This document shows positions 1-53,048 of a stretch of 64,000 nt of DNA, in pieces. The notes below the pieces were generated by a model. That model did not search any database. It had not been told where the DNA came from and saw only the letters and a list, made by a program, of their open reading frames with translations. The translations under genes were made by a program, and so were the position numbers. The stretch's first letter is position 1. The number at the start of each line of letters is the position of its first letter. Source of the stretch: Chloroflexota bacterium (GTDB taxonomy: Bacteria > Chloroflexota > Dehalococcoidia > SZUA-161 > SpSt-899); contig JABMQN010000014.1 of NCBI GenBank assembly GCA_013203045.1, positions 28,373 through 92,372 of the forward strand, read 5' to 3'.

Positions 1-1107
1 GTTGCCATCCCAGATGTGTGGTGAGGGGGAATACTGAGGGTAGAAAGATTCGTCGCAGAATCGTTGCCCATACTTATTAACCCAGATAGCGTGCGGGTAA
101 CCACCCTCGGCAGACAGCCTCCACAACGGCTTGCCCTCAGCCTCTTCACTGGGGGCGTTGTAACCGAACATTGTTGCCAGTGTCCCGACCGGAATGACGG
201 CAATTTGCGCGCCGATTTCGCATCCGAATGTAAGATGATCGCCTGTGATTTGCGGCGGGCAGGCAGAGTGAACTTCCGGCATCTGTTCGTAATACCTGGT
301 CAGTTCGTCATTCCAGTCATAACCGCCCATAGCCAGTAGAACACCCTTACTTGCCGAGACCCAGAAATCATTACCTTCGCGTTCAGCTAGGACACCGATT
401 ACGGTATCGTTTTCGACTACCAGCTCTTTTACACTTGTATCCAGATAGGCAGGAATTTGACGGTCTATCATGGCGGCCTTAATGAAATAGGCCATCATGC
501 CGGGACCGAAAGTGCGGGAACCTTCTGCCATGCGCTGGCCTAGCAGGGCAAAATCCCATTTGAGCATGGAAGCGCCGCCACCCCACTCGAACATTTCTTC
601 GGCGGTGATGCCGCAGGGCATGTGAGGAGTCAATCGCGAAAGGGGTTCCCATTCTCCTAAATCAGAACCTTTGAATATTTCAGTCTCAAGGTAGCGGCCT
701 TCGGGTAGAGCGCCTTCACAGTGCGGATAGAAGTAGTCAGCGAATTTTGGAATGGTCTTCCATCGGACACCAGCCTTTTCTTCCAGGTACTGGCAAACCT
801 CTGGCGCCATATCCGAATAGAGTTCAGCCAGTTCAGAATCAGCGAATCCGCCGGCCAGAAAATCCAGATATTGTTTGGCTTCCTCGCGCGAATCCGGCAT
901 TCCCTGACGTTTCATTACGTGGTTGTTCGGAACCCATATCTCTCCACCGGAAAGAGCGGCGACTCCTCCCAGCTTGGGAGCCTTTTCCAGTACAATGGCT
1001 TTCATGCCAACATCGTGTGCTGCGATAGCACCCGTAAGCCCTCCGATACCAGAGCCCACAGCGATGAAATCGACTTCAATATCCCATTTATCAGGTTTGT
1101 TTGCCAT
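1..1107 (-). CDS. FAD-dependent oxidoreductase, 3-ketosteroid-delta1-dehydrogenase / fumarate-reductase flavoprotein-like. 3' end truncated by the window edge
   Basis: The reverse strand reads without a stop from an ATG at 1105-1107 to base 1, about 369 aa. It begins MANKPDKWDIEVDFIAVGSGIGGLTGAIAAHDVGMKAIVLEKAPKLGG, a Rossmann FAD-binding GxGxxG motif, followed by SGGEIWVPNNHVMKRQGMPDSREEAKQYLDFL, typical of the KstD/FrdA-like family. GAGGAGA lies 5 nt upstream of the ATG. The supplied plus-strand ORFs at 64-1167 are alternative frames of this gene. Confidence 0.7.
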   Translation of the reverse strand, partial: MANKPDKWDIEVDFIAVGSGIGGLTGAIAAHDVGMKAIVLEKAPKLGGVAALSGGEIWVPNNHVMKRQGMPDSREEAKQYLDFLAGGFADSELAELYSDMAPEVCQYLEEKAGVRWKTIPKFADYFYPHCEGALPEGRYLETEIFKGSDLGEWEPLSRLTPHMPCGITAEEMFEWGGGASMLKWDFALLGQRMAEGSRTFGPGMMAYFIKAAMIDRQIPAYLDTSVKELVVENDTVIGVLAEREGNDFWVSASKGVLLAMGGYDWNDELTRYYEQMPEVHSACPPQITGDHLTFGCEIGAQIAVIPVGTLATMFGYNAPSEEAEGKPLWRLSAEGGYPHAIWVNKYGQRFCDESFYPQYSPSPHIWDGN

Positions 1108-1152: not shown

Positions 1153-1818
1153 CTAATAGCACATTAAAAGTTCGTTGCTGATGTTGTTTTTCCAGCAACT
1201 TGTAGTCCTGTAAGATGGCCGTCCTTTGCGATGTTCTTCCTTGTTCATAAGTTCACGCAAATGAGCTTCGAGATTGCCACAGCCTGTCTCATGGAATTGC
1301 AGTGGCAGATTCATGAAATCTGCAATGACCTGTGCCTCCTGGCGTAGTTGGGGACTGTCATTTTGAATCAGGTAGACGATTCGAGTGCAGTTATGGAAAT
1401 AGGTTTCCTTGAGTTCAGGATAACGGTCTAATCCAAGTCCCTGTATTACTGCGCGATGAAAGGTTCGTACCAGAAAATCAGTTAGAAAGAAAGTCCCTAT
1501 TTCTTCTTCAAGAAATTGATCGTATTTAGTACCGGCGTACATTTCGTAGCAGTTTCGAGCATTTATACGAAAGATATTGTATTTATCCAATACTTCATCC
1601 AGCTTGCCTCGTGATCCACATTCGCCATAAACCACAACCAATCGATCACACCGCTCCTGGATTCTCTCGATACGTTTTTCAACATCCGGGGCTATACGCA
1701 TAGGAAACATGTGATCTTCCGGTGAAACACCGATTATTTCAGCGTCCCATCCTTGTTTACGGACAATGCCCTTTACTTCTTGTCCCAGCGCGCCACAGGT
1801 GATGAATCCTGTTTTCAT
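1153..1818 (-). CDS. DUF1638 domain protein, an accessory protein commonly encoded with corrinoid methyltransferase systems
   Basis: 221 aa. Its start overlaps the upstream methyltransferase stop by 4 nt. It has a paralog at 21332-21949 in the same relative position of the second methyltransferase operon. Confidence 0.65.
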   Translation of the reverse strand: MKTGFITCGALGQEVKGIVRKQGWDAEIIGVSPEDHMFPMRIAPDVEKRIERIQERCDRLVVVYGECGSRGKLDEVLDKYNIFRINARNCYEMYAGTKYDQFLEEEIGTFFLTDFLVRTFHRAVIQGLGLDRYPELKETYFHNCTRIVYLIQNDSPQLRQEAQVIADFMNLPLQFHETGCGNLEAHLRELMNKEEHRKGRPSYRTTSCWKNNISNELLMCY

Positions 1819-2621
1819 TTGCTTTCCAGTTTCCCTGCCCGATAGGCTTTAATATAACTCATGCTCCATTCGTCTTGCCCGATAAGTGTAGATGAAGCTA
1901 GCATAGTTGCCATCAATTCCTGATTACGTACATCCACAAGGAAGGCATCCATTCCTAATGCTGCCTGCATACCCACGAAAGTGCGATTGAGAAGTTTGCG
2001 TAGTGGCATACCATAACTAATGTTACTTGATCCGCAAAATGTGCGAACCTGGGGCAGGCGTTCATGGATAAGTCGGAGCACTTCCAGAGAGACAACCCCG
2101 GCTACATAATCGGCGGCTATTGCCATTACGAGCGGATCTATATATAAGTTTTCCGGTTCAAGTCCGGCAGATGTTGTTCGTTCGAACAGCTTCACGGCAA
2201 TTGAGCATCTTACCTCCGGGTCAGGTGAAATACCTGCCTCATCCATACACATCCCAACCAATCCACATTTATGCTGCACCGCGAGTTGGAGAAGTCCGAT
2301 ATGTCCCTCCGTCATTTCGCCGGTAATGGAATTGATAATGGGATTTGGCCCTTTGTAAACAGCCAGTGCTGCTTCCAGTGCTTCGGGATTGGAACTATCC
2401 AGAACTAGTGGTAGATCCGTCACATCCTGCACTGTCTGTACCATCCAGACCAAGTCTTCAATCTCACTTTGTCCCGGTACCGCGGCATTCACGTCGAGCA
2501 TGTCCGCTCCGCATTCTGTTTGAGTGCGTGCCAGAGATGCGATTTTCTCTACGTCATGCTCGATAACCGCTTGCCGTACCAAGGGGATGGTGGCATTGAG
2601 GGATTCTCCGACTATTATCAT
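1815..2621 (-). CDS. Pterin-binding methyltransferase, a methyl-corrinoid:tetrahydrofolate methyltransferase of the MtrH/AcsE/DHPS-like fold
   Basis: 268 aa. The N-terminus MIIVGESLNATIPLVRQAVIEHD is characteristic of the pterin-binding domain family. It has a paralog at 16906-17703 (MIIVGEKINTSRRIIREAVE). Confidence 0.8.
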   Translation of the reverse strand: MIIVGESLNATIPLVRQAVIEHDVEKIASLARTQTECGADMLDVNAAVPGQSEIEDLVWMVQTVQDVTDLPLVLDSSNPEALEAALAVYKGPNPIINSITGEMTEGHIGLLQLAVQHKCGLVGMCMDEAGISPDPEVRCSIAVKLFERTTSAGLEPENLYIDPLVMAIAADYVAGVVSLEVLRLIHERLPQVRTFCGSSNISYGMPLRKLLNRTFVGMQAALGMDAFLVDVRNQELMATMLASSTLIGQDEWSMSYIKAYRAGKLESK

Positions 2622-2717: not shown

Positions 2718-4058
2718 TCAATAAGGCACGCCACAGGCTGCCAGTTCTTCCTTCGCTTTTTCTAGATGATCAATATACCATTGATGAGGCTGAACCGTCT
2801 CAAGATCGTAAACCTCGGGGAATTTACATGTGTTACCCTTCACCTCCGGGGCATACTTAAGTTGAAGGTCCATTATCTTGTTGATGACTTCAATTGCCTG
2901 TTCTCTTTCCATTCCAGCCATTGCATTCATAACTTCACCAGAGTATCGAGCTTCTATGCCAGTATTACCGGCGATCCAGCAAAAAGACATCCCGCTGGCG
3001 GTGAACAGAGTGGCCATATTTACTGCTTGTATCAAAGTAAATGGCGATTTACACAGGACACCAGAGGCACATCCGCCGATACAGACTTTGATGTTGCGCT
3101 CGGAAGCACGGGCGGCTCCACTATAGGCCCAGTGTGTGGGCTTTGTTGCAGATTTCCCATCCATATGATTGGTGAAGAGACTGCACAGTTGGCCATGAGC
3201 ATAAGTCAACTGTCCGAGCAAATTCGCCGTAAGCCCAACCGCCGTATCAGCAGCGTTTCGACATAGACCGCCAATCATGGACATGGAACTCTGCCAGGGT
3301 TGTATTCCTCGCACCTGGCAAAACTGAGCTAAAACAAGCTGGCTCCAGCTAATTTTCATTTCCGGGATGATATGAACACCAATCTGGGTATTATGCGCTT
3401 CACGAAGACCAGCGGCCATCATAGTCATGATTCCACTAGGGCTGCTCAACGTAGCTAGCAATCCTACATGAAGACCCGGCCTCCCCGCTTTTTCAAGAGC
3501 TTCTTTGATATGTTCCTGTTCCCATAGGCCAACAACGATTTCGCTGGGAGTGCCAGCTTTGGCCTTCATATCACCAAGTTTGGCCAGTCCTGCAGTTATA
3601 CCCATCGCCTTAATAGATTCTTCCTGAGCAAACGACTGAATATAGGGAACATACCATTCTTCCTGAGCTACTCCCCATGAGCCCGCGTAGAGCGTTGGGG
3701 GGCGTTTGTCCGTGCTGGCACGGTATTCGATGGTAACTTCGTCCTTGTCTTTTCCGAAAGTATGCTTGCTGGGGTTGTCACTATATTCTTGGGCAGTTTT
3801 TTCGATTTCCTCTTTGGTGAGCTTGATTACCCGTTCCGTATCAAGGTGATAAATACCTACTTCTGCCAGTAGTTCTACTGCTGCCTGGAAAATAGCATCA
3901 GCGGTAGCGTCATCAACCACAAGTTCGTTTTCGTTATATTCGATATTGTATTTCTTTACCACGTCACGAATCTTCATGGCGAATTCCATATCGAATTCGT
4001 CGCTCTTCATTACCGGCCCGCTCAAAGACCGTTCGTGGATTTCAATTATGGGGAGCAT
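2718..4058 (-). CDS. MtmB-superfamily (monomethylamine methyltransferase-like) substrate:corrinoid methyltransferase lacking pyrrolysine
   Basis: 446 aa, continuous ORF with no in-frame TAG. From my recollection of Methanosarcina MtmB, the active-site region AGRPGMGV-O-GPETSLSAQG aligns with AGRPGLHV-G-LLATLSSPSG here, putting glycine at the pyrrolysine position. The C-terminus NTGIEARYSGEVMNAMAG...KFPEVYDLETVQPHQWYIDHLEKAKEELAACGVPY matches the MtmB C-terminus TTGMEARMMGEVARATAG...FQECYDVKTVTPTEEYMQVYDGARKKLEDLGLVF. Confidence 0.75.
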   Translation of the reverse strand: MLPIIEIHERSLSGPVMKSDEFDMEFAMKIRDVVKKYNIEYNENELVVDDATADAIFQAAVELLAEVGIYHLDTERVIKLTKEEIEKTAQEYSDNPSKHTFGKDKDEVTIEYRASTDKRPPTLYAGSWGVAQEEWYVPYIQSFAQEESIKAMGITAGLAKLGDMKAKAGTPSEIVVGLWEQEHIKEALEKAGRPGLHVGLLATLSSPSGIMTMMAAGLREAHNTQIGVHIIPEMKISWSQLVLAQFCQVRGIQPWQSSMSMIGGLCRNAADTAVGLTANLLGQLTYAHGQLCSLFTNHMDGKSATKPTHWAYSGAARASERNIKVCIGGCASGVLCKSPFTLIQAVNMATLFTASGMSFCWIAGNTGIEARYSGEVMNAMAGMEREQAIEVINKIMDLQLKYAPEVKGNTCKFPEVYDLETVQPHQWYIDHLEKAKEELAACGVPY

Positions 4059-4072
4059 GTTTCCTCCTAAAG

Positions 4073-4708
4073 TTAGTTAATATCCATTAGCCCTTTGCAG
4101 AGTTTCACTGCTTCTACGGCGTTTGGGGCCCAGCCGTCAGCGCCCATGGCTACCGCTTTTTCTTGACTGGTTTCCGTGCCGCCAATTATCACTTTGTATT
4201 TGTCCTTTATACCCATATCGCGCAGGTAATCGATCACCTCATTGCAATTGGGAATCGTAGTTACCAAAAATGCAGAAAGCCCTATGATGTCTGCACTGGT
4301 TTCCTTAGCCTTATCAATAAAAGTCATTGCTGGGACATTTACCCCGATCTTATGGACTTTGAATCCATTTAACTCAAGCTGAGTAGCGACTAGGCTGTAG
4401 CCGATATCGTGAAGGTCACCCTCGACAGCTCCAAGTACGACGGTTCCAGCGCTCGCCGATCCCGTAGCAGGTAAATGCGGTTCTACCAGATCCATGCAGG
4501 CCTGGCTGACCTTGCCGCCCATCATAAGTTCTGCCAGGAAATACTCCTCGGTTTCGAATTTCTTGCCCACTCCCTGCAGTCCGGGAACGATACCGGAATT
4601 GATGATCTCCGGCGGGTCAACGCCCTCATCGAGAGCTTGCTGCACCAGGGATAGAGCTTTATCTTTTTCGAGTTCTTCGACAGCTTGAGAAATTTGATTA
4701 AGATCCAT
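4073..4708 (-). CDS. Cobalamin-binding corrinoid protein, MtmC/MtbC/MttC-like
   Basis: 211 aa. It carries the B12-binding DxHxxG motif (VEGDLHDIGYSLV) and a Rossmann-like C-terminal B12-binding domain. It is the first gene of the minus-strand operon. Confidence 0.9.
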   Translation of the reverse strand: MDLNQISQAVEELEKDKALSLVQQALDEGVDPPEIINSGIVPGLQGVGKKFETEEYFLAELMMGGKVSQACMDLVEPHLPATGSASAGTVVLGAVEGDLHDIGYSLVATQLELNGFKVHKIGVNVPAMTFIDKAKETSADIIGLSAFLVTTIPNCNEVIDYLRDMGIKDKYKVIIGGTETSQEKAVAMGADGWAPNAVEAVKLCKGLMDIN

Positions 4709-5040: not shown

Positions 5041-5523
5041 CTAATTCTGAAACTGGTTTTCTCCCGTAAAAGTGAAAGAGAATTTCTTTATCTTTAGATA
5101 TACCATTGTCTCGGCGCTTATCAAACCAGCAATCTCACCAAGCTCATTCCTGATGAATTGCGATAAATCCTCTGGCTCTCTGAACATCACTATTGTTATT
5201 ATGTCATACCGTCCAGCAGTGATAATCACAAAAGGAACATTTACGTAGGATGCAAGCTTGTTGGCAACGCTGTCGACCTCGCCAGGCTGAACTTTTATTC
5301 CCATCGTCGCCACTGTCTTGTATCCCTGCGTTTGTGGGTCAGCAACAGCAACGATACTGATAATGCCGTCATCGATAAGAGAATTTAGTTTGCGGCGCGC
5401 TGTAGCTTTGCTGGTACCAATCAACCTGGCAAGTTCGGAATTGGTTTGTCTACCATCGGCCTCAAGCTCTTCGATCAGTTTTATATCTAACGCATCGAGA
5501 TTACGGGATGCACTGTCTTTCAT
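5041..5523 (-). CDS. Lrp/AsnC family transcriptional regulator
   Basis: 160 aa. It has an N-terminal HTH (LDALDIKLIEELEADGRQTNSELARLIGTSKATARRKLNSLIDDGII) and a C-terminal RAM/AsnC_trans_reg domain. Confidence 0.85.
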   Translation of the reverse strand: MKDSASRNLDALDIKLIEELEADGRQTNSELARLIGTSKATARRKLNSLIDDGIISIVAVADPQTQGYKTVATMGIKVQPGEVDSVANKLASYVNVPFVIITAGRYDIITIVMFREPEDLSQFIRNELGEIAGLISAETMVYLKIKKFSFTFTGENQFQN

Positions 5524-5643: not shown

Positions 5644-6132
5644 CTATTCCTGGGGACTAAAGTTAGTACTTGCAAGATACGTAAAGGATGCTTTTGTAAT
5701 CTTCAGGTTGATCATAGTCTCAACGCTCGTCAAACCTTCAATATTGCCCAGTTCTTTTCTGAGGAAATTGGATAAATCCTCTGGCTCACGAAACATCATC
5801 CATGCAATTATGTCATAGCGTCCAGTGCTAATAATCACAAAATGAACATTTTTGTAAGCAGCAAGCTTGTCTACTACAGCATCGACATCTCCAGGACGCA
5901 CATTAATACCCATAGTTGCTACAGTTCTGTACCCGAGAGCAGGTGGACTGGCAACAGCAACTACCTTGATAATACCGTCATCGAGGAGTCTTCGCAGTTT
6001 TCTGCGTGCTGTCGCCTTGCTGGTACCTATCTTTTTAGCGAGATCCGTGTTAGTTTGTCTACCATCAACTTCTAACTCCGTGATTAACATTAGATCCATT
6101 TCGTCGAGATTATCCAGAGTATCAGTCTTCAT
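5644..6132 (-). CDS. Lrp/AsnC family transcriptional regulator, tandem paralog
   Basis: 162 aa. It shares the same domain order as 5041-5523 and is about 60% identical to it by eye. Confidence 0.85.
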   Translation of the reverse strand: MKTDTLDNLDEMDLMLITELEVDGRQTNTDLAKKIGTSKATARRKLRRLLDDGIIKVVAVASPPALGYRTVATMGINVRPGDVDAVVDKLAAYKNVHFVIISTGRYDIIAWMMFREPEDLSNFLRKELGNIEGLTSVETMINLKITKASFTYLASTNFSPQE

Positions 6133-6461: not shown

Positions 6462-7556
6462 CTAACTTCCGCGGAATGAATATGGATGTAGCCGATAAGA
6501 TAGCTTAAATTTCTCGATAAAACCAGCTACTCCTTTTGGTGCCATTTTGATGAACATCATCACACCCAAACCGCCAACTATGTACTTCAATGCAAAGTGT
6601 ATCTGTGCGGCCCATCGAGAAGGCATATGATCAACTGCCCATGGAGCAACGTAGTCCATTACGATGATATCCATCCCATCGAAGAATATCACACCTGAAA
6701 AGACGGCACTGATAGACCCCGTTCCACCTATGACTATCATGCCCATATAAAATATTGAATCCCCGATGTCAAATTGGCTGGCATTTACTCTGAGCTGGAA
6801 ATATGCCCACAACCATCCAGCCACTCCAGCAAAACAGCTGGCAATAAAGAAAGCAAGTAGTTTGCTACGGATCAGGTTTATTCCGGCTACTTCAGCCGCC
6901 AAATCATTATCACGAACGGCTACTAGAATTCTTCCTGTGTTAGATCTCTGAATACCCAGGGTAATATATGTTCCCACAATAACAAAGATCACAGTTAAAA
7001 TATACAGGCTCGTATCTGAACCGAAGTCAAACGGCCCCAGAGTAAGAGGTTCCAGTTGAATTCCAGTGAAACCGCCTGTATAGTCCCACCATGCGTTGTC
7101 CGAACCTTTTGGTCCGGGAAACCGTAGCAACCACAGAATTATATCTTGACTTACCCAGGTTGCGATAGCCAAATAGAATAGTTTCAACCTGACAGTGATG
7201 AGCCCTACGACCAAACCCACTAAACCAGCCGCAAGAGCTGACAATGGCAGACAAAGCCAACCGTTGATATCCCACTGTGATGAAAGTATAGCAACTGTGA
7301 AGGCGCCTATCGCCATAAAGCCCGCTTGCCCTAGAGAGGCCAAACCGCAAAGACCAACCAGTATATGTAATCCAAGCAATACTATGATGTGTATCCCTAT
7401 TATTATAAGCTTGGTTAGCCAGTAAGGAGAAGCTATGTGAGGAACAAGTAAAAAGAAAACTAGGAGAACCACCAGTAGTAAAAACCACTGAGTCGAGGTT
7501 TTGAAAATCTTCAGTTCTGATGCGTATTTGGTACTAAAAACTCCGCCTGGTAACAT
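6462..7556 (-). CDS. Branched-chain amino acid (HAAT family) ABC transporter permease, LivM-like
   Basis: 364 aa polytopic membrane protein. Its C-terminal region resembles LivM permeases and it sits directly downstream of a LivH-like permease. Confidence 0.7.
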   Translation of the reverse strand: MLPGGVFSTKYASELKIFKTSTQWFLLLVVLLVFFLLVPHIASPYWLTKLIIIGIHIIVLLGLHILVGLCGLASLGQAGFMAIGAFTVAILSSQWDINGWLCLPLSALAAGLVGLVVGLITVRLKLFYLAIATWVSQDIILWLLRFPGPKGSDNAWWDYTGGFTGIQLEPLTLGPFDFGSDTSLYILTVIFVIVGTYITLGIQRSNTGRILVAVRDNDLAAEVAGINLIRSKLLAFFIASCFAGVAGWLWAYFQLRVNASQFDIGDSIFYMGMIVIGGTGSISAVFSGVIFFDGMDIIVMDYVAPWAVDHMPSRWAAQIHFALKYIVGGLGVMMFIKMAPKGVAGFIEKFKLSYRLHPYSFRGS

Positions 7557-7558
7557 GA

Positions 7559-8815
7559 CTAAATCCGCCTTATTCCTTTCAGACCGAATAAACCATGCGG
7601 CCTAACAATAATGATCACTAACAATAGAACATAGGGCATAATAGCTCTGAATTGTGGGATATAGGGATCAATATAAGCCCCCGAAAGCTGCTCTGTCAAC
7701 CCGACAATTAGCGCCGCGAGAAAACATCCGCCAATAGACTCCAAACCTCCCAGGACCATTACCGGGAGAGCACGAAATAGGCCGTAGATACCCATACCAC
7801 CGCTCTCACTGTATACGGCTGTTTTAGTTGCCAGAAGGATACCGCCGATGGCTGCTGTCAGGGCTCCCACAACCCAGGCGATTGCATAAACTCGCTTGAC
7901 ATAGATGCCTAAACTTTGACTCACAACACTGTTCTCAGAAACACATCGCATTGCAAGGCCAGTTTTGGTGAATCTGAAGAAAAGGACAAAAATTACAAAC
8001 AAAAGTGTGCCTGTGATGAAAGCGGATAAGAGATCCCAGGGAAGTCGGTAATTTCCAACTTCGATCGTACCTGAAGGGAATAATTGAGGCATTATTTGTG
8101 ATTTACCCTCAAATACCAGTACACACCCACCGTGGAGGAGCAGGAACCCAAAAAAGACGGCTAACATGAAGGTCATCAAGGGGCTTGCACCAATCATTCC
8201 CCTGAACACTAAACGATCAGTATATAATCCAAAGACCACTGCAGCAAAAGTGAGTATAGTTAGCCCAACAATGCGGAGCCACCAATATGTAAGATGATCG
8301 CCACTTAATTCTCCCCACACAAATATCCCAAACCCTATCGTAGCACAAATCCCAAATGCTACCCCGAACTGTCCAAATTGTCTCCTATTTGTAATTCTAA
8401 TAGCCATAACAGCTACAATCAGCCCCAAAGTAATGAGAACATAGGACTGGTTATCCCCTACTGCTAACAGCCACCAGGCCAGGAAAGTGAGGAACTGCAG
8501 CATTCCGCCCGCAGCCATATTGAGCACTCTGGTAGCCTTATATACCACCACCATACCCAGAGCAATGATGGAGTACATACCTCCCCACATCAGGCCACTC
8601 AAAAGAGCACCCGTAAGCTTGTCCCTTCCATCGCCTGTTAATACTTTAAAAACGCCAGGGACACCACAGTACAGAATTACCAAAACAATAGCAATAACTA
8701 CAGCTATTGCTATTGCCGCGATAAATGCGCTGCTCTTAGCCTTTTCCAGGAGAATGCGTATACTTGCTCCCGGTAGGCCTACTACTTTTCTTATTGCGTA
8801 CTTTTGAGCATCCAT
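7559..8815 (-). CDS. Branched-chain amino acid (HAAT family) ABC transporter permease, LivH-like, with an N-terminal extension
   Basis: 418 aa. The LivH-like core starts near residue 70 (LLSGLMWGGMYSIIALGMVVVYKATRVLNMAAGGM). It ends 3 nt before the next gene's start. Confidence 0.7.
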   Translation of the reverse strand: MDAQKYAIRKVVGLPGASIRILLEKAKSSAFIAAIAIAVVIAIVLVILYCGVPGVFKVLTGDGRDKLTGALLSGLMWGGMYSIIALGMVVVYKATRVLNMAAGGMLQFLTFLAWWLLAVGDNQSYVLITLGLIVAVMAIRITNRRQFGQFGVAFGICATIGFGIFVWGELSGDHLTYWWLRIVGLTILTFAAVVFGLYTDRLVFRGMIGASPLMTFMLAVFFGFLLLHGGCVLVFEGKSQIMPQLFPSGTIEVGNYRLPWDLLSAFITGTLLFVIFVLFFRFTKTGLAMRCVSENSVVSQSLGIYVKRVYAIAWVVGALTAAIGGILLATKTAVYSESGGMGIYGLFRALPVMVLGGLESIGGCFLAALIVGLTEQLSGAYIDPYIPQFRAIMPYVLLLVIIIVRPHGLFGLKGIRRI

Positions 8816-8832: not shown

Positions 8833-10062
8833 CTATTGTTCGATCCTGCTTTCACCAGGATCGTTGAACATAACTCCGTCTTGAATTGAAGCATATATTT
8901 GCTTGAGATTAACCCCAATGGCATGGAAGAACCTGAGTGTCTCCGGGGCGACTATGCCCCCTGCCGCGTAAGCAACTTTCGTTCTGTCCAATCCATGTTT
9001 ATCTCTCAACGGCCTAAATACCATATGTTCCCAAAACAAACTGGCTGACTTAACAAAAGGGCTTACGCTGTTCCCTTTGAGTAAGGCGTCTGTCTCTCGG
9101 AATCCATTTGACACCCCTCGATTGAAAACCATTCGTTTTAGTCCGGTTCCACCCGCCATGTTTGATTGAATGGCTATCGATAGCTGGTCCCACATTTGCG
9201 ATGGATATGCCAGGGTGTGTGGCGATATCTCCCTCAAGTCCTCTTCAGCTGTCTCACCACTCTCAGCAAAATTGAGCCTTCTTCCCGTTAAAAGCGAGAC
9301 TGTAAATCCCAGCACTTGTTCAAAGAACCACCCCGGATTCATAACACAGACGTACTCGTGCTTATCCTCAATCGGATTTGCAGCCAAGACAGTCTCCCCA
9401 GACGAAATCAGGATCCCATGAGTTAGAGGCAACAGTTCAACGGAGTCAGAGCTTTTCCACACGCATAGAAACATCGCAATATCATTGCCGCTTCCCTGAG
9501 ATAACGCTCTCTCAAAATTATCTGCGGAGTTTTGCGAATATCCATTGCCTTTGTTGGCTAGGGTACTCATATTTATCAGGCCAGCATCATCGTAATGCTT
9601 GAGTCCTTTATCGTTCCAGTAGATGATCTTTTCAAGTGAAGGAAGAGAATCTCTAATTCCCAGAAGCTTATCTACCTGCTCCTGATCTTGCGCAAATGCA
9701 AATTTCGGCTGCGCATGTTCAAATATAAGACTGGTTTGCTCAGCCGTACGAACGGGATTCACTCCAACTACTATCCCACCATAAGTTTGAATTGCCAATT
9801 GACAGCAGAACCAATCCGGATCATTGTCTCCGAGAATGGCTACCTTGTCCCCATTTTTAAGTCCTAAATCCGCCAAACCGGCAAAAATGTCTTTTATTCT
9901 ATCACAGCATTCCTGCCAACTGCGTTCCTTCCAGACACCTTGTTCCTTTTTACGCAGGGCAACTTGGGTATCGCCCCAATGATTACAGTTACGAACCAGG
10001 AGTTTAGGGAGTGTATCCTTGTTATCCCTAGAAAGTCGTGCAGTAGTCTTGCTTTTGCTCAT
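8833..10062 (-). CDS. AMP-dependent synthetase/ligase family protein, divergent, with no canonical TSGTTGxPKG P-loop recognised
   Basis: 409 aa. The N-terminal half resembles long-chain acyl-CoA synthetases (VAILGDNDPDWFCCQLAIQTYGGIVVGVNP...). The canonical AMP-binding motif appears degenerate and the C-terminal subdomain seems absent. It is the first gene of an operon with the two permeases. Confidence 0.4.
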   Translation of the reverse strand: MSKSKTTARLSRDNKDTLPKLLVRNCNHWGDTQVALRKKEQGVWKERSWQECCDRIKDIFAGLADLGLKNGDKVAILGDNDPDWFCCQLAIQTYGGIVVGVNPVRTAEQTSLIFEHAQPKFAFAQDQEQVDKLLGIRDSLPSLEKIIYWNDKGLKHYDDAGLINMSTLANKGNGYSQNSADNFERALSQGSGNDIAMFLCVWKSSDSVELLPLTHGILISSGETVLAANPIEDKHEYVCVMNPGWFFEQVLGFTVSLLTGRRLNFAESGETAEEDLREISPHTLAYPSQMWDQLSIAIQSNMAGGTGLKRMVFNRGVSNGFRETDALLKGNSVSPFVKSASLFWEHMVFRPLRDKHGLDRTKVAYAAGGIVAPETLRFFHAIGVNLKQIYASIQDGVMFNDPGESRIEQ

Positions 10063-10577: not shown

Positions 10578-11336
10578 ATGAGTAAATTAAATGGTAAAGT
10601 AGCTTTAGTAACAGGCGGATCTGCAGGGATTGGCAGGAGTACAGCTTTGGCATTTGCTCGAGAGGGTGCCAGAGTGGTGGTGGCTGATTATGCCGTTGAT
10701 GGTGGTGAGGAAACAGTCCGGCTGATCAAGGAGGGTGGTGGTGAAGCTGTGTTCATAAAGGTTGATGTATCCATAGCTTCCGACGTGGAATCAATGGTAA
10801 ACAAAGCAATTGAGACATATGGCCGCCTTGATTGTGCTGCCAATAATGCCGGGATAAGTGGACCAATTGTTGCCAGTATTGATCTGGAGGAAAAGGATTG
10901 GGATCAAGTTGTAAATATTGATCTTAAAGGCGTTTGGCTTTGTATGAAATACGAGATACCCCACATGCTTAACCAGGGTGGTGGTTCTATCGTCAATACC
11001 GCATCAATGGCAGGTATTGTCGGGTTTCCGGCTCAAGCTCCCTATGTAGCCAGTAAACATGGTGTTATCGGGCTTACCAAGTCAGCCGCACTTGAATATG
11101 GCACCCAGGGTATTCGGGTAAATGCCGTCTGCCCGGGGGTGATTCACACTTCGATGGTTGATTCGGTAATTGAGGTTATCCCCGATATTATTGAGACTTT
11201 GAATAAACAGGCACCGGTTGGCCGTATTGGTCAGCCACAAGAGGTGGCCGAGTGTATTTTATGGCTTTGTTCCGATGATGCATCTTTTGTCACTGGTCAT
11301 GCTCTGGTTGTCGACGGTGGCTATGTAGCCCAATAG
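10578..11336 (+). CDS. SDR family NAD(P)-dependent oxidoreductase
   Basis: 252 aa. It has the TGGSAGIGRSTALAFAREGARVVVAD dinucleotide-binding motif, a catalytic YxxxK (YVASKHG), and an AAGGGAG ribosome-binding site. Confidence 0.9.
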   Translation: MSKLNGKVALVTGGSAGIGRSTALAFAREGARVVVADYAVDGGEETVRLIKEGGGEAVFIKVDVSIASDVESMVNKAIETYGRLDCAANNAGISGPIVASIDLEEKDWDQVVNIDLKGVWLCMKYEIPHMLNQGGGSIVNTASMAGIVGFPAQAPYVASKHGVIGLTKSAALEYGTQGIRVNAVCPGVIHTSMVDSVIEVIPDIIETLNKQAPVGRIGQPQEVAECILWLCSDDASFVTGHALVVDGGYVAQ

Positions 11337-11377: not shown

Positions 11378-13276
11378 ATGAAGCGATATGATATCCTATT
11401 CCTGCCATCCGGACGGAGAGGGCCGATCAACGAAGGGGCAACTCTTCGAGACGCAGCTCACTCCCTTGGTGAAGGAATAGAAAGTATCTGTGGCGGGGAA
11501 GGTTCTTGTGGGAAATGCAGAGTTCGCGTTCTTGAAGGTAATGAACATGGCATCGTTTCTACAATCAGCCACCTATCTGGATTGACCGATATCGAGAAAC
11601 GATACGCTCAAGATTTTGACCTGCGACCAAATGAACGGCTCGCGTGCCAGGCTCGGATACATGGTAACCTGGCCATTTTTGTGCCAGAGGAAAGCCGTAC
11701 CGGTCGGCAGATCATCCTCAAATCTGCAGGGAAACAGACAATTGATATTGCACCGACTATCCGTAAGTACTTCCTTGATATTGCTCACACTGAGATCAAC
11801 AGTGCATCAAACCAAAAAGGCTGGCTATCGGCTGAATTAGCGGATCGCTTTAATCTACACGATGTAATTGTTGATAACTCTGTTTTAGAGACTTTCTCAA
11901 ATCTATCTCAGAACAAGGATCGAGGAATAACAATCACGGTCTGGGACAACAAAGAAGTAATCCGCGTTGAGTCGGGATACCATGAGAACGCATACGGCCT
12001 GGCGATAGACATTGGGACCACAACTATCGGAGGGTATCTATGTGATTTAGTCACTGGCGAGAACCTGGCCACTGAATCGATGATGAATCCTCAAATCCAG
12101 TTCGGAGAGGACATCATGACACGCATCAGTTACGCCAAATCCCACACTAATGGCCTCGCTGAACTCAACGACTGCATAATCGGTGCACTGAACCAAATGA
12201 TTGGCAACATTACTTCTCAAGTAGGATTGACTCCTGATGATATTGCAGAAACAGTAGTTGTGGGCAACACCGTGATGCATCATATCTTTCTGGGGCTCGA
12301 TATCTCTGGGTTGGCCTTTTGGCCATTCAAACCAGAGATAACACGATCAGTGAACAGGAAGGCGCGTGACCTCGGGCTTGGAGTCTTACCTTCTGCTAAT
12401 GTTCATGTCTTGCCAATTGAGGCAGGTTTTGTCGGAGCTGACAACGTAGGTGTACTAATCGCTGAGGAACCTTACAACCAAGACGAAATCCTGCTGATAA
12501 TTGATATAGGTACCAATGGTGAGCTGGTTATGGGGAATCAGCAACGGTTGCTTTCTGCTTCATGTGCTACAGGGCCAGCATTTGAGGGTGCGAACATCAA
12601 ATTTGGAATGCGCGCTGCACCCGGCGCTATCGATAGAGTTCGAGTTATCCCACAGACATTCGATTTGCGATTCACTGTTATCGGGAATGAAAAGTGGAAT
12701 ACAGAAATACCCTCGGCGGAAATCAAAGCATGCGGAATTTGCGGTTCGGGCATCATAGATGCCGTGGCTGAATTGTTCGTGGCGGGGCTTATCAAGAAAG
12801 ATGGCAGCTTTAACAAGACATTAAATTCGCCACGGTTACGACTCGATAAAGACGAGAAACCAGAGTTCGTCATTGCCTGGGCTTATGAAACTGCAATTAA
12901 TCAAGATATCACAGTAACCCAAAAAGATGTGCGTGCTATTCAACTTGCCAAAGCTGCGATCAATTCCGGAGCACAACTGATGCTGCGTCGACTGGGTATC
13001 GAACGACCGGATAAGGTTATTCTTGCCGGGGCTTTCGGCACGGTAATCGACCGCGAAAGGGCATTGGCAATCGGTATGTTCCCGGAATGTGATATTGAGG
13101 ATATCTATTCAATCGGTAATGCTGCCGGTGATGGTGCTCGCATAGCCTTGCTCAACAAAAACAAACGTCAAGAGGCCGATAAAATAGCTCGCGAGGTTGA
13201 GTATATTGAACTTACTGAAGACCCCGGTTTTCATGAAGTATTTATAGGGGCAACTCACTTTCCATCGAGGCAATAG
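11378..13276 (+). CDS. ATP-dependent reductive activator of corrinoid proteins, RACo/RamA-like: N-terminal 2Fe-2S ferredoxin plus ASKHA ATPase (COG3894)
   Basis: 632 aa. It has the plant-type ferredoxin cysteine motif CGGEGSCGKCRV...C near the N-terminus. The central and C-terminal part is an acetate/sugar-kinase-like fold typical of RACo. Confidence 0.8.
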   Translation: MKRYDILFLPSGRRGPINEGATLRDAAHSLGEGIESICGGEGSCGKCRVRVLEGNEHGIVSTISHLSGLTDIEKRYAQDFDLRPNERLACQARIHGNLAIFVPEESRTGRQIILKSAGKQTIDIAPTIRKYFLDIAHTEINSASNQKGWLSAELADRFNLHDVIVDNSVLETFSNLSQNKDRGITITVWDNKEVIRVESGYHENAYGLAIDIGTTTIGGYLCDLVTGENLATESMMNPQIQFGEDIMTRISYAKSHTNGLAELNDCIIGALNQMIGNITSQVGLTPDDIAETVVVGNTVMHHIFLGLDISGLAFWPFKPEITRSVNRKARDLGLGVLPSANVHVLPIEAGFVGADNVGVLIAEEPYNQDEILLIIDIGTNGELVMGNQQRLLSASCATGPAFEGANIKFGMRAAPGAIDRVRVIPQTFDLRFTVIGNEKWNTEIPSAEIKACGICGSGIIDAVAELFVAGLIKKDGSFNKTLNSPRLRLDKDEKPEFVIAWAYETAINQDITVTQKDVRAIQLAKAAINSGAQLMLRRLGIERPDKVILAGAFGTVIDRERALAIGMFPECDIEDIYSIGNAAGDGARIALLNKNKRQEADKIAREVEYIELTEDPGFHEVFIGATHFPSRQ

Positions 13277-13454
13277 CGTGCTGGTAAATTAGGAGTTAGC
13301 ACTTGCTCGTTTTGTTAAGCGCTATGACGCTCGTTCATACTTCGAGAGCCTCAGCACGAACGGGCTAGCAATCTGGGCATACTGCTTCCGCTCGCCCTGA
13401 GCGTGCCGTCGCTGAAGCACTTGGACATGTTACGGTCAATTAGAAAACTTAGTA

Positions 13455-14273
13455 CTAGTCGCAAAGTGGTCGAAGTCTGATAACTATTGGAGCTTCGTGT
13501 TTGTGTTTATGAGCCTTATGTCGTTCCCAGACAAAGGCAGCTATCTCATCGAGGTCCTGGATCGGCATATCGTCATAACAATCAAGGCAAAATCTGACAC
13601 TCTGTTCCATCTCGTCATATGTTCTGCCTAAATCGGCTTCATCCGTTTGGTTCTCTTCCAGACCTGCTGAAGGGATACGGTCAATATTCTCTTCATCTAT
13701 CGTGCCCTCATCCCTGAAATACTCGAGGAGCTGATAGACTTCAGATTTGAAAAGTTCACCGATAGGAAAAATATCGGCCAGGGCATCGCCCCCTTTAGTA
13801 TCGTATCCTATGAAGTCCTCCGAAAGATTACCGGTGCCCATAACTCGAACTCGTTTTCCTTCGAATTGCGTCGAAAGGTTGTGAGCAATACCGTAAAGAA
13901 TACACATTCTTGCCCGGCTACGTGCATTGCCTTTGTTCGTTAGTGTAAGTTCAGACTCGGATTCGATAAAAACCTGCTCATTAATTGCGTCGGATATTTT
14001 AGCTACCGGACGTACAAGATGGCTAATACCTATTCTTTCAGCCAGACTGGCTGATTGTGCATTGAATGTTTTTATATCCACTTCATCGTAAGGCATACTA
14101 ATTCCGTAGACAACCTCTTTACCGAGCGCCTTCATGCACAGGATAGCAGTTAATGACGAATCAGCTCCTCCGCTCAAACCAACCACAGCTATGTCAACTC
14201 TGGATTTTATCTCTGAATACATGTGGTCAAGCAGCTTTTCGAAATCGCAAATCACGGATAAAACCTCTACCAA
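13455..14273 (-). CDS. nadE: NH3-dependent NAD+ synthetase
   Basis: 272 aa. It carries the PP-loop SGGADSS and the conserved NKGNARSRARM, GTGNLSED and TKGGD segments. Confidence 0.9.
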   Translation of the reverse strand: MVEVLSVICDFEKLLDHMYSEIKSRVDIAVVGLSGGADSSLTAILCMKALGKEVVYGISMPYDEVDIKTFNAQSASLAERIGISHLVRPVAKISDAINEQVFIESESELTLTNKGNARSRARMCILYGIAHNLSTQFEGKRVRVMGTGNLSEDFIGYDTKGGDALADIFPIGELFKSEVYQLLEYFRDEGTIDEENIDRIPSAGLEENQTDEADLGRTYDEMEQSVRFCLDCYDDMPIQDLDEIAAFVWERHKAHKHKHEAPIVIRLRPLCD

Positions 14274-16905: not shown

Positions 16906-17703
16906 ATGATCATAGTGGGTGAAAAGATTAACACAAGCCGTAGAATCATAAGAGAAGCGGTTGAAAATCGAGATGCTAACTTCATCATCAAAGTTGCACA
17001 GGATCAGGCGCAAGCCGGCGCAAACTATATTGATGTCAATGCCGGTACCTTTGTGGACAAAGAGATAGAAAATCTCTGCTGGTTAGTCGAAACCGTTCAA
17101 AGTTCACTCGATTATCCACTCTGCCTTGACAGTCCTAATCCAACAGCCTTAGCTGAAGCGATGAAGCTCCACAAAGGCGAACCGATGATAAACTCGATTT
17201 CTATGGAGGAAGACCGGCTTGGTCCCCTTCTGCCCGTGGTTACGTCTGGCCCATGTCAAATAATTGCTTTGTGTATGGGACAAGCCTCGATGCCAATAAC
17301 AGTTGAGGAAAGAGTAGACGTTGGTGCTCAACTCATTCAAAAGCTTACAGGTGAAGGCGTTCCAATTGAAAAAATATTCGTTGATCCGCTAATCCAACCG
17401 ATTTCAGTGGATACCAACATGGGTATTGCCGCACTTGGAGCCATTCGCAAGATAATAGACGATTTCCCCGGAGTAAATACGATCTGCGGCCTATCAAACA
17501 TTTCATTTGGTCTTCCGGAACGCCACATTATCAATCGCAATTTTCTGGCTTTGGCCATGTCGTACGGTTTGTCCGGTGCAATCATGGATCCAACCGATAT
17601 AAAGCTCACGTCTACACTTCTTTCGATTGAAATGCTACTAGGTAGAGATGAATACTGTGAAAAATTCATTGATGCCTATCAGGAAAAGCGAATTTCTGGA
17701 TAA
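16906..17703 (+). CDS. Pterin-binding methyltransferase, methyl-corrinoid:tetrahydrofolate methyltransferase (MtrH/AcsE-like)
   Basis: 265 aa, paralog of 1815-2621. It is the first gene of an operon that also encodes a corrinoid protein and MttB-family proteins. Confidence 0.8.
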   Translation: MIIVGEKINTSRRIIREAVENRDANFIIKVAQDQAQAGANYIDVNAGTFVDKEIENLCWLVETVQSSLDYPLCLDSPNPTALAEAMKLHKGEPMINSISMEEDRLGPLLPVVTSGPCQIIALCMGQASMPITVEERVDVGAQLIQKLTGEGVPIEKIFVDPLIQPISVDTNMGIAALGAIRKIIDDFPGVNTICGLSNISFGLPERHIINRNFLALAMSYGLSGAIMDPTDIKLTSTLLSIEMLLGRDEYCEKFIDAYQEKRISG

Positions 17704-17751
17704 AAGAAGTCTCGCCGGAGTGAAAAGAAATAAGCATAATGGAGGTCGAAA

Positions 17752-18390: not shown

Positions 18391-18417
18391 CCTCTTGAAA
18401 GTAAATTCCGCATTGAA

Positions 18418-19878: not shown

Positions 19879-19893
19879 CCAAGCGTTTTACTC

Positions 19894-21330: not shown

Positions 21331-21331
21331 G

Positions 21332-21949: not shown

Positions 21950-22001
21950 ATACTTCACACCATCTTTATCGGCACCTTCAACTCGTGCAAGGGCTATTAG
22001 A

Positions 22002-39734: not shown

Positions 39735-39867
39735 AGCGATCCTCACATCGGGATAAACGAAAATACCCCAAACTGATGGTAGCATGCATACTTATGTGAG
39801 GAAAACGTGGACTACACCAATTTTATGGTGGGGGTGAACGACCAGCTTGAAGGTAATATAGGGTAAC

Positions 39868-53041: not shown

Positions 53042-53048
53042 ACAAAAT

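Follow-up and report, generated by a model that had tools for sequence, protein, structure and literature searches.

The DNA analyzed here (the window) is a 64,000-nucleotide stretch of contig JABMQN010000014.1 in GenBank assembly GCA_013203045.1, from a Chloroflexota bacterium of the class Dehalococcoidia. Near its start, four genes lie on the minus strand in the order corrinoid protein (CoP), MT1, MT2 and DUF1638. MT1 (2718..4058) had been singled out in an earlier, sequence-only reading as an MtmB-type methyltransferase with glycine in place of pyrrolysine (Pyl). The neighbors given in that reading, a corrinoid protein at 4073-4708, MT2 at 1815-2621 and DUF1638 downstream (1153-1818 in this analysis), are all borne out by domain matches.

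Operon and gene neighborhood

CoP (4073..4708, minus strand) is an AbeB/EmtB-like cognate corrinoid protein with B12-binding (PF02310) and B12-binding_2 (PF02607) domains, and it matches MtgC/MtbC-type corrinoid protein models. Residues 98 to 103 read DLHDIG, the DxHxxG motif of His-on cobalamin binding, and its gene is separated from MT1 by 14 nt. MT2 (1815..2621, minus strand) is an AbeC-like, pterin-binding protein (PF00809) predicted to be a methylcorrinoid:tetrahydrofolate (THF) methyltransferase, scoring 285.8 bits on NF005719 against a cutoff of 259. The DUF1638 gene (1153..1818, minus strand; PF07796, E value of 3.8e-24) overlaps the MT2 stop with its start by 4 nt and is present in 7 of the 8 orthologous loci. 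Its product probably assists in the reactivation of corrinoid, a role alongside RamA-like proteins that we infer from fitness data in Phaeobacter (10.1101/192971) and induction in Ruegeria (PMC12478193).

Beginning 45 nt downstream of DUF1638 is a gene for a KstD-type (3-oxosteroid delta-1-dehydrogenase-like) FAD_binding_2 flavoprotein (1..1107, minus strand), of which the window edge leaves the N-terminal 369 codons. The best solved relatives of its full-length ortholog at locus L005 (positions 12184-13839) are the 3-oxosteroid 1-dehydrogenases 7P18 (E value of 2.8e-67) and 4C3X, and in a second KstD-type copy, Tyr/Tyr/Tyr/Gly align with Y119/Y318/Y487/G491 of KstD1. Of the 8 orthologous loci, 7 have a KstD-type gene after the operon. 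NCBIfam KstD-type matches stay below their equivalog cutoffs, and models for 4-oxocyclohexanecarboxylate dehydrogenase score similarly, so the ring system need not be a steroid; the KstD-type assignment, made by sequence comparison, holds at the family level only.

On the other side of the operon, 332 nt upstream of the CoP gene, lies an Lrp/AsnC-family regulator gene (5041..5523, minus strand; PF01037 and PF13412), which recurs near 6 of the 8 orthologous loci and is a candidate regulator of the operon. A second Lrp/AsnC-family regulator, assigned by a domain match (5644..6132, minus strand), is found in L005 too. Farther away and on the plus strand are genes for an SDR oxidoreductase (10578..11336; PF13561; NF004818 at 373 bits, above cutoff) and, adjoining it, a RACo/RamA-type ATP-dependent reductive activase of corrinoid proteins (11378..13276; PF14574, PF17651 and PF00111). 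The activase (RACo) combines a 2Fe-2S domain with an ASKHA domain, scores 416 bits as AcsV-like, which is below cutoff, and keeps its position in L005; the SDR protein possibly interconverts hydroxy and oxo groups on the substrate skeleton. An Rfam scan of the window for riboswitches and other RNAs found nothing. Two Pyl-free MttB homologs are encoded in another operon of the window, so that the organism may also demethylate amines.

Reading frame, family and fold of MT1

MT1 (minus strand) encodes 446 aa in a frame whose sole stop is the terminal TGA, with an AGGAGG ribosome-binding site closely upstream. PF05369 (MtmB) is its sole Pfam match and spans nearly the whole profile (E value of 2.7e-52; residues 4 to 443 on profile positions 3 to 449 of 450). 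The Pfam scan gave no match to PF06253 (MttB), and no NCBIfam MtmB model was matched by MT1. Methanosarcina barkeri MtmB (1L2Q/1NTH) aligns through residues 11 to 456 with residues 6 to 444 of MT1 (E value of 3e-27) at 22 to 24% identity. The AlphaFold model of MT1 (pLDDT of 95.5) superimposes on the MtmB structures (1TV2/1NTH/1L2Q) with a TM score of 0.91 and an rmsd of 2.6 Å, compared to just 0.49 to 0.54 for MttB/MtgB structures. Profile, pairwise alignment and modeled fold hence uphold the claim that the protein aligns with MtmB from end to end, and they place it within the MtmB family and outside the MttB family.

All homologs found for MT1 are full length and carry Gly at the Pyl column. 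Comparison with its orthologs gave dN/dS values of 0.016 to 0.035, which means strong purifying selection on the gene. MT1 is a real, conserved, Pyl-free MtmB-fold enzyme. That it is a functional substrate:corrinoid methyltransferase and not a decayed gene, as proposed earlier, is supported by these values, by the full-length homologs and by the presence of its own CoP and THF-side methyltransferase. The alternative of a decayed or corrected Pyl gene was rejected because of the same dN/dS values, the invariant Gly and its codon, GGA, which differs from TAG at 3 of 3 positions.

The pyrrolysine position and its surroundings

The active-site motif of MT1 reads GRPGLHV-G-LLATLS, in which the residue at the Pyl column is G199 (window positions 3462-3464). 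In the MAFFT family alignment, which is ungapped there, Gly occupies this column in 121 of 121 sequences (MT1 and 120 homologs). Both the motif and the absence of any in-frame TAG were therefore correctly described in the sequence-only reading, and the close homologs, too, all have Gly at this column. A one-residue gap opposite Pyl202 appears in the HMMER pairwise alignment only and was discarded as a description of this position. In genuine Pyl genes, the UAG truncates the database entry, which is then a C-terminal fragment of about 250 aa.

Residues at and around the Pyl site have been replaced: Pyl202, G203, E229, S231, M257 and E259 of MtmB correspond to G199, L200, G227, H229, W255 and S257 of MT1. 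E229 and E259 are acidic residues around the Pyl site of the M. barkeri enzyme, and G227 and S257 in their columns are invariant across the AbeA/EmtA-type lineage. Lineage-specific invariant residues, Trp and His residues included, cluster around the former Pyl site. MT1 and MtmB keep in common the framework residues R193/R196, E146/E150, E173/E176 and E233/E235 (MT1/MtmB numbering). A Zn site built from conserved Cys/His residues as in MtaB was considered as well and set aside; C247 and C266 are invariant only in the Dehalococcoidia-centered set and not in the whole lineage.

These data bear on whether MT1 is a genuine monomethylamine:corrinoid methyltransferase, the name that automated annotation gives to its homologs and one with which a sole Pfam match to PF05369 would agree. 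Against it stand the absence of a Pyl codon, the invariant Gly, the substitution of Gly and Ser for E229 and E259 and the lack of a match to any NCBIfam MtmB model. Moreover, TAG is a common stop in the window, terminating 15 of its 46 long ORFs; no tRNA gene, pylT included, was found in the window, and neither a pyl gene nor a Pyl-biosynthesis domain was found among the 46 long ORFs scanned. The monomethylamine reading is effectively refuted.

Placement in the AbeA/EmtA lineage

Pyl-free members of the MtmB family have been described in three systems. In Denitratisoma, gene disruption and cell-extract assays showed that the methylation of estrogen requires EmtA, whose closest similarity is described as being to MtmB (about 30%) and whose partner is an MtmC-like corrinoid protein (10.1101/714501; PNAS 2020). 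AbeABC of Phosphitispora sp. TUW77 (PNAS 2025) transfers the C-19 methyl group of 1-dehydrotestosterone to THF after a 3-oxosteroid 1-dehydrogenase step, resulting in anaerobic bacterial estrogenesis; the function of AbeA rests on physiology, isotope labeling and omics and not on a purified enzyme, and AbeA and EmtA, at about 40% identity, form one lineage and share the same estradiol/1-dehydrotestosterone pair (PMC11912376). MtqB of Methanococcoides methylutens Q3c, reported to branch near Pyl-MtmB, acts on tetramethylammonium/choline (PMC13044021, 2026). The assertion that all characterized Pyl-free relatives have the MttB fold is thus contradicted by EmtA (2020), AbeA (2025) and MtqB (2026).

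In an NJ tree (200 bootstraps) of MT1 with AbeA-type, Pyl-MtmB and other Pyl-free sequences, MT1 shares a clade with the AbeA-type ORFs of TUW77, five in number, at 100% bootstrap support, well apart from Pyl-MtmB and from the Pyl-free relatives nearer to it. Identities follow the same division, with 44 to 47% between MT1 and AbeA compared to 21 to 27% between MT1 and the MtmB side of the tree. Within the large clade, the group containing MT1 is sister to AbeA plus Moorellales (85% bootstrap), and MT1 is not among the nearest relatives of AbeA; a protein of an Anaerolineales MAG is 56 to 63% identical to AbeA. Judged by sequence, MT1 belongs to the described EmtA/AbeA lineage and is not a new class, EmtA being compared by its published description only, and the MT1 family is a distinct Dehalococcoidia subfamily within this lineage. 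The sequence-only reading expected a new substrate class or mechanism; one does exist, the C-methyl group of a steroid, but it had been described before, and MT1 lies inside the lineage concerned.

The likeness to AbeABC extends beyond MT1. AbeA1-4 are likewise Pyl-free MtmB-fold proteins with Gly in the Pyl column (GRPGMHL-G-LIPTVS), CoP is 59 to 60% identical to the four AbeB copies, and MT2 is 47% identical to AbeC1-3. RACo and the SDR protein are 39% and 37% identical to their counterparts beside the abe genes at the TUW77 locus L051, which carries abeC/B/A, and further counterparts at TUW77 abe loci exist for an SRPBCC protein (35%), a BaiCD-like Fe-S flavoenzyme (33 to 38%) and a FAD_binding_2 flavoprotein (24 to 27%), the gene for the last lying between two abeA-type ORFs in TUW77. 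The systems differ in gene order (CoP-MT1-MT2-DUF1638 here, MT2-CoP-MT1 in TUW77), in host (Dehalococcoidia versus Peptococcaceae) and in DUF1638, which was not found in TUW77 at distances of up to 10 kb from the abe genes. THF is the methyl acceptor of AbeABC and, by analogy, would be so here.

Other known systems share fewer of these features. EmtABCD of Denitratisoma sp. DHT3 and Steroidobacter denitrificans runs in the methylating direction and has EmtC and EmtD but no MT2, whereas MT2 is present here. Two proteobacterial MAG loci (L044 and L045) combine CoP, MT1 and luciferase-like oxidoreductases without MT2, which is an emt-like layout, and neither contains a serine hydroxymethyltransferase gene like the one following emtABCD in DHT3. 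MtgBCD-type systems of Ruegeria/Phaeobacter (PMC12478193, 10.1101/192971) have an MT1, a corrinoid protein, a pterin-binding MT2, RamA/RACo and DUF1638, as here, but their MT1 has the MttB fold (PF06253), as in other Pyl-free MttB proteins, and their substrates are betaines. With M. barkeri MtmB the common ground is the TIM-barrel fold, while UAG/Pyl occurs in MtmB only.

MtqB/MtqC resembles the present system in that an MtmB-superfamily enzyme free of Pyl has its own corrinoid protein, and differs in its quaternary amine substrates, its CoM acceptor and the lack of a flavoprotein/SDR context. MT1 itself may act on an amine, and one form of this would be an MtqB-like methyltransferase for tetramethylammonium/choline, which we regard as very improbable. 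MtqB does show that demethylation of quaternary amines is within reach of a Pyl-free MtmB homolog (PMC13044021), the second operon with Pyl-free MttB homologs is typical of quaternary amine use, and the lineage-invariant Trp residues could in principle form a cation-pi cage. However, the MtqB clade is reported to lie near Pyl-MtmB, the half of the tree to which MT1 is 21 to 27% identical; the Pyl-free MtmB of Methanohalobium evestigatum (P0266), the sole named protein from Methanosarcinaceae that could serve as a proxy for the MtqB neighborhood and located in that opposite half, is about 25% identical to MT1; and the conserved KstD-like, SDR and BaiCD-like context would have no role in amine demethylation. 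A profile search for MtqB-like proteins returned the Methanohalobium protein along with Asgard and proteobacterial matches, and among the cluster names of ten Pyl-free near-MtmB proteins there was only a Methanomassiliicoccales name.

Proposed function and mechanism

For MT1, the analysis showed the fold, the lineage to which it belongs, the composition of its operon, its conservation and the purifying selection acting on it. Which substrate it uses, whether it demethylates or methylates, and what single residues do are inferred by analogy with the described systems. On this basis, we propose with a probability of roughly 60% that MT1 is the substrate-specific methyltransferase of a three-component, cobalamin-dependent system of the AbeABC/EmtAB type in uncultured Dehalococcoidia. 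Such a system would most likely take the ring-junction methyl group off a steroid-like compound with a 3-oxo-1,4-diene structure, with cobalamin as the carrier and tetrahydrofolate as the acceptor.

In the proposed sequence of events, the downstream KstD-type flavoprotein would convert the 3-oxo-4-ene ring of a steroid-like (alicyclic) substrate to a cross-conjugated 1,4-dien-3-one. MT1 would bind this dienone, and Co(I) of the adjacent corrinoid protein would take the quaternary ring-junction methyl group, with removal of the methyl breaking a C-C bond and aromatizing the ring to a phenol. MT2 would then move the methyl group from CH3-Co(III) to tetrahydrofolate, and RACo, probably together with the DUF1638 protein, would re-reduce corrinoid that has been accidentally oxidized. 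Pyl would not be needed, since the substrate would be activated by its own dienone chemistry and not by an imine adduct; the Pyl pocket appears to have been rebuilt, with Gly for Pyl, Gly and Ser for E229 and E259, and the lineage-invariant Trp and His residues added.

Set against an AbeABC-like function are the identity to AbeA of just 44 to 47% and the position of MT1 in a sister clade, and our literature search found no report of steroid metabolism in Dehalococcoidia. The same lineage and corrinoid relay might serve a different methylated substrate, such as a ketone that is alicyclic but not a steroid, one derived from a terpenoid, or a compound with its methyl group on O, N or S, an alternative that is conceivable but on balance unlikely. 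The separate subfamily to which MT1 belongs would fit such a substrate, and so would the Dehalococcoidia paralogs (57 to 67% identity), whose varied KstD-like/SDR neighbors suggest diversified specificities. In addition, the neighboring flavoproteins and SDR proteins score alike on models of the cyclohexanecarboxylate pathway and of steroid metabolism, and the KstD-like, SDR and ene-reductase neighbors would process the other skeleton. On the other hand, EmtA and AbeA act on the same substrate pair at about 40% identity, so that the identity between MT1 and AbeA is within range, and a steroid-type set (KstD-type, BaiCD-type, SDR and SRPBCC) recurs at TUW77 and at the orthologous loci.

The direction of transfer could also be that of EmtAB, with MT2 passing the methyl group of methyl-THF to the corrinoid and MT1 methylating a phenolic (estrogen-like) ring to a dienone for degradation. 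We consider this improbable. MT2-type enzymes are reversible, as in MetH, the EmtAB reaction is reportedly reversible in cell extracts (cited in PMC11912376), and the KstD-like and ene-reductase neighbors fit after a methylation as well as before it. Yet, by published reasoning (PMC11912376), demethylating systems of the AbeABC kind have an MT2, as found here, and the methylating ones of proteobacteria lack it, and the Denitratisoma system is described as dependent on SAM-linked C1 metabolism (PMC7448270). Demethylation of a steroid-like dienone by an AbeABC-type relay is the reading that we prefer.

Paralogs and implications

In the related Dehalococcoidia MAGs, only the orthogroup of MT1 is adjoined by CoP, MT2 and DUF1638. 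The closest MAG has four more loci with MT1 paralogs, one of them with two tandem copies; these other paralogs lie beside KstD-like or SDR genes, and neither a CoP nor an MT2 gene is found within 5 kb of them. In Ruegeria, one core corrinoid module has been proposed to serve several MT1 paralogs (PMC12478193). A speculative extension, which we think has a small chance of being correct, is a hub-and-spoke system with the MT1 operon at its core and a different ring system for each paralog.

The sequence-only reading was right that a Pyl-free MtmB-fold enzyme implies chemistry other than methylamine activation. This chemistry, in which a corrinoid mediates the transfer of a steroid methyl group bound to carbon, appeared in papers of 2020 and 2025. 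What is new here is a strongly conserved Dehalococcoidia subfamily with a complete THF-linked operon, including DUF1638 and followed by KstD-type genes, and the occurrence in the same genomes of several MT1 paralogs lacking a nearby corrinoid partner gene. This extends a published remark on Abe homologs in marine-sediment Chloroflexota. There is also a gap between two literatures, that of MtqB and that of EmtA/AbeA: the MtqB paper presents MtqB as the first Pyl-free MtmB whose function has been demonstrated, and it contains neither the term EmtA nor AbeA (PMC13044021). Automated annotation still labels all such proteins "monomethylamine:corrinoid methyltransferase."

MT1 and its paralogs are concrete candidates for a wider alicyclic demethylation. 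If the hub-and-spoke arrangement proves true, organisms in anoxic marine settings would have a general anaerobic route for breaking down alicyclic matter derived from sterols, hopanoids or terpenoids, in which quaternary (ring-junction) methyl groups are removed with the help of cobalamin, and such demethylation would not be limited to sex hormones.

The MT1 gene and its pyrrolysine-free active site

An ORF of 446 codons on the minus strand (2718-4058) encodes the methyltransferase MT1; its sole stop is the terminal TGA, and an AGGAGG ribosome-binding site lies a few bases ahead of the start. PF05369 (MtmB) is its single Pfam match, covering the whole protein (E = 2.7e-52), with no match to the MttB family in the Pfam scan, and in pairwise alignment the crystal sequence of M. 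barkeri MtmB matches it from end to end (E = 3e-27). An AlphaFold model built with 30 homologs as input (pLDDT 95.5, pTM 0.94) predicts a fold that matches MtmB structures with a TM score of 0.91 (rmsd 2.6 Å), compared to ~0.5 for MttB and MtgB structures. The active-site stretch reads GRPGLHV-G-LLATLS. HMMER pairwise alignment leaves a one-residue gap in MT1 facing pyrrolysine; in the ungapped alignment with 120 homologs, the pyrrolysine column of MT1 is Gly199 (codon GGA), and all 121 sequences have Gly there. The sequence-only reading of this ORF, its MtmB fold and its Gly-containing motif therefore stands as written, and domain and motif matches agree with the neighbors it described: a corrinoid protein (4073-4708) with a DxHxxG motif, a pterin-binding methyl-THF:corrinoid methyltransferase, MT2 (1815-2621), scoring above the NF005719 curated cutoff, and a DUF1638 protein (1153-1818). 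DUF1638 has genetic and proteomic ties to RamA-like corrinoid reactivation (10.1101/192971; PMC12478193).

MT1 is a functional gene. Its dN/dS values are 0.025, 0.016, and 0.035 against orthologs with 94.5%, 80%, and 81% nucleotide identity, respectively. At least 200 relatives came up in the homolog search, and nearly all of the 120 listed are full length (446 to 449 aa, 50 to 91% identity), with no stop at the Gly position among them; when MtmB is the query, true pyrrolysine genes appear as ~250-aa C-terminal fragments, split at UAG by gene callers. The low dN/dS, the full-length homologs and the uninterrupted Gly position all favor the earlier suggestion of a functional, undecayed and pyrrolysine-free gene. 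TAG terminates 15 of the 46 long ORFs in the window, including DUF1638, two Lrp genes (5041-5523 and 5644-6132, minus strand) and the corrinoid reductive activase RACo (11378-13276, plus strand). No tRNA genes were found in the window, and no pyrrolysine-synthesis or PylS domains among its annotated ORFs. Judged from the window, the host seems not to use pyrrolysine.

Placement within the AbeA/EmtA lineage

The premise that all characterized pyrrolysine-free relatives have the MttB fold is contradicted by MtqB, AbeA, and EmtA, which are MtmB-type. MtqB of Methanococcoides methylutens demethylates tetramethylammonium and choline and was styled the first pyrrolysine-free MtmB homolog with demonstrated function (PMC13044021, 2026), and the protein most induced in "Ca. 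Formimonas warabiya" on dichloromethane is a pyrrolysine-free member of the MtmB superfamily (DCMF, PMC9768040, 2022). EmtA (2019/2020) and AbeA (2025), both pyrrolysine-free, predate MtqB; literature searches on these enzymes failed to bring up the MtqB paper, and the two bodies of work thus seem to be unlinked. In Phosphitispora sp. TUW77, the cobalamin-dependent AbeABC system, composed of an MT1 (AbeA), a corrinoid protein (AbeB), and an MT2 (AbeC), takes the C-19 angular methyl off 1-dehydrotestosterone, yielding estradiol, and transfers this methyl to THF, the dienone being made beforehand by a 3-oxosteroid 1-dehydrogenase (PMC11912376, PNAS 2025). EmtA/EmtB of Denitratisoma, 40 to 57% identical to AbeA/AbeB, run the reverse reaction (PMC11912376; 10.1101/714501); emtA disruption abolishes growth on estrogens, and EmtA is described as most similar to MtmB, at ~30% (10.1101/714501). 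The authors regard AbeA and EmtA as a distinct lineage beside MtmB and name a protein of a marine-sediment Chloroflexota MAG as AbeA's closest relative (PMC11912376).

MT1 very probably belongs to this lineage (probability roughly 0.9). Four scanned TUW77 loci (L050, NZ_CP156677.1 at ~45-57 kb; L051; L052; L057) hold five full-length AbeA-type ORFs, where four abeA genes were reported (PMC11912376); the additional or most divergent copy, L050:230-1636, shows 55 to 59% identity to the rest. MT1 shares 44 to 47% identity with all five across 99% of its length, the corrinoid protein 59 to 60% with AbeB, and MT2 47% with AbeC. In a neighbor-joining tree (200 bootstraps), to which EmtA, NQT71483.1, and MtqB are related by published description and not by sequence, AbeA and the relatives of MT1 form a clade with 100% support; AbeA plus Moorellales (99%) is sister to the group with MT1 (85%), and support for the Dehalococcoidia group is 98%. 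An Anaerolineales protein is 56 to 63% identical to AbeA, so MT1 is not AbeA's closest Chloroflexota relative. Proteins on the MtmB side are just 21 to 27% identical to MT1 throughout, including the pyrrolysine-free MtmB of Methanohalobium and pyrrolysine-free proteins whose residue at the pyrrolysine column is Q, C, K, T, M, I, L, F, E, G, D, or H. Among the residues that never vary in the 30 sampled lineage members and are rare elsewhere are G199 (MtmB Pyl202), L200 (G203), G227 (E229), H229 (S231), W255 (M257), S257 (E259), W179, W361, R317, and N279. E229 and E259 of MtmB reportedly contact pyrrolysine in the 2002 structure. These replacements mean that the pyrrolysine pocket was rebuilt and not simply lost. 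MT1 is a distinct Dehalococcoidia subfamily within the known AbeA/EmtA lineage.

A second methyl-transfer operon and other genes in the window

A parallel methyl-transfer operon lies on the plus strand (16906-24332). Its products are a pterin-binding MT2 (16906-17703), a DLHDIG-bearing corrinoid protein (17752-18390), a tandem pair of MttB-family proteins with no in-frame stops (18418-19878 and 19894-21330), DUF1638 (21332-21949), and a RACo-CBS domain fusion protein (22002-24332). The MttB-family pair scores under the TIGR02369 cutoff, indicative of pyrrolysine-free MttB homologs, and the parts of this operon are just 27 to 37% identical to those of the first.

Elsewhere, a 1,445-aa ORF with phosphomannose isomerase and phosphoglucomutase/phosphomannomutase domains lies beside a pair of cohesin-domain proteins of 219 and 507 aa (37606-44205, minus strand), and a DUF3786 protein whose N terminus carries an Fe-S motif precedes a predicted metal-binding protein of the DUF2284 family (52235-53639, plus strand). 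A 404-aa ORF (56573-57787, minus strand) has no Pfam match.

Distribution and paralogs of MT1

In the scan of species-representative genomes, an uncultured Dehalococcoidia MAG contig (L005) encodes a protein 98% identical to MT1 in the gene order of the window, including RACo, the adjoining SDR (10578-11336, plus strand), the AMP-binding/LivHM genes, and two Lrp genes. A 409-aa ORF (8833-10062, minus strand) corresponds to AMP-binding (acyl-CoA ligase) enzymes in their N-terminal part alone; the short form and its arrangement recur in L005 and in another locus, L009, so it is probably no pseudogene. Directly downstream are two LivH/LivM-type ABC permeases (7559-8815 and 6462-7556), with no ATPase or binding-protein gene identified beside them.

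Other relatives occur in Dehalococcoidia, Desulfobacterota, Binatia, Pseudomonadales/Cellvibrionales, a Moorellales MAG, and an Anaerolineales MAG, TUW77 being the one cultured host in the scan. Within 5 kb, the 8 loci of the MT1 orthogroup contain the corrinoid protein in 8, MT2, DUF1638, and KstD-like genes in 7 each, and SDR in none; the 19 loci of Dehalococcoidia-type paralogs have no corrinoid protein, MT2, or DUF1638, with KstD-like genes in 5 and SDR in 7; and the 32 loci of other phyla have 22, 4, 0, 11, and 1, respectively. Related Dehalococcoidia MAGs (L013-L029, L061, L065, and L066) carry several MT1 paralogs at 57 to 67% identity, and the nearest MAG, CAZWIP01, adds another four loci, one of which holds a tandem pair. 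This expansion suggests diverged specificities.

Pseudomonadales/Cellvibrionales MAGs (L067-L074, L076, and L080), putatively aerobic marine gammaproteobacteria, form a basal branch (38 to 42% identity to MT1) with a fixed RACo-corrinoid protein-MT1-MT2 order, in contrast to the published view of proteobacterial members without MT2 (PMC11912376). In two wastewater-plant proteobacterial MAGs (L044:9962-12310 and L045), a single stop-free ORF of 782 aa carries MT1 followed by a luciferase-like (FMN/F420 oxidoreductase) domain. Around this ORF lie a further pair of luciferase-like genes, a TonB receptor, and one TetR and one RamA-like gene; MT2 is absent. The arrangement may reflect a true fusion, a frameshift, or a cluster of the emtABCD type.

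A putative AbeABC-like system

At orthologous loci, the operon extends into two KstD-type flavoproteins, an SRPBCC protein, and BaiCD/OYE-type Fe-S flavoenzymes; in the window, the first 369 codons of the flavoprotein downstream of DUF1638 are present and the rest lies beyond the edge. The best solved relatives of both KstD-type flavoproteins are the 3-oxosteroid 1-dehydrogenases 7P18 and 4C3X, and Tyr, Tyr, Tyr, and Gly of the second align with the catalytic residues Y119, Y318, Y487, and G491 of KstD1. Both stay below the NCBIfam equivalog cutoffs, and models of 4-oxocyclohexanecarboxylate dehydrogenase give them similar scores, which justifies only the description "ring 1-dehydrogenase-like." TUW77 has counterparts of RACo (39% identity), SDR (37%), SRPBCC (35%), the BaiCD-like Fe-S flavoenzyme (33 to 38%), and the FAD_binding_2 flavoprotein (24 to 27%). 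There, between two abeA-type ORFs, the SRPBCC gene immediately precedes the flavoprotein gene, and the flavoprotein position is consistent with the paper's 3-oxosteroid 1-dehydrogenase ABFY19_00270 (PMC11912376).

By analogy, an AbeABC-like system is the best-supported reading of the operon. The KstD-type enzyme would form a cross-conjugated dienone, MT1 would bring the ring-junction methyl within reach of the corrinoid protein's Co(I), the ring would aromatize, MT2 would hand the methyl to THF, and RACo, probably together with DUF1638, would repair oxidized corrinoid. We moderately favor demethylation as the direction and a steroid-like dienone as the substrate. AbeA and EmtA act on the same estradiol/1-dehydrotestosterone pair at ~40% identity, less than that between MT1 and AbeA, which argues for shared chemistry. 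On the side of caution, an Anaerolineales protein lies closer to AbeA than MT1 does, the paralog expansion hints at diverged specificities, and the function of AbeA was assigned from physiology, isotope labeling, and omics, not from purified enzyme (PMC11912376). What survives of the sequence-only interpretation is a functional, pyrrolysine-free enzyme with non-methylamine chemistry; its claim of a new class does not, its premise being outdated by EmtA, AbeA, and MtqB. The hub-and-spoke layout, with one complete operon and partner-less MT1 paralogs beside ring-modifying enzymes, could mean broader corrinoid-dependent C-demethylation.
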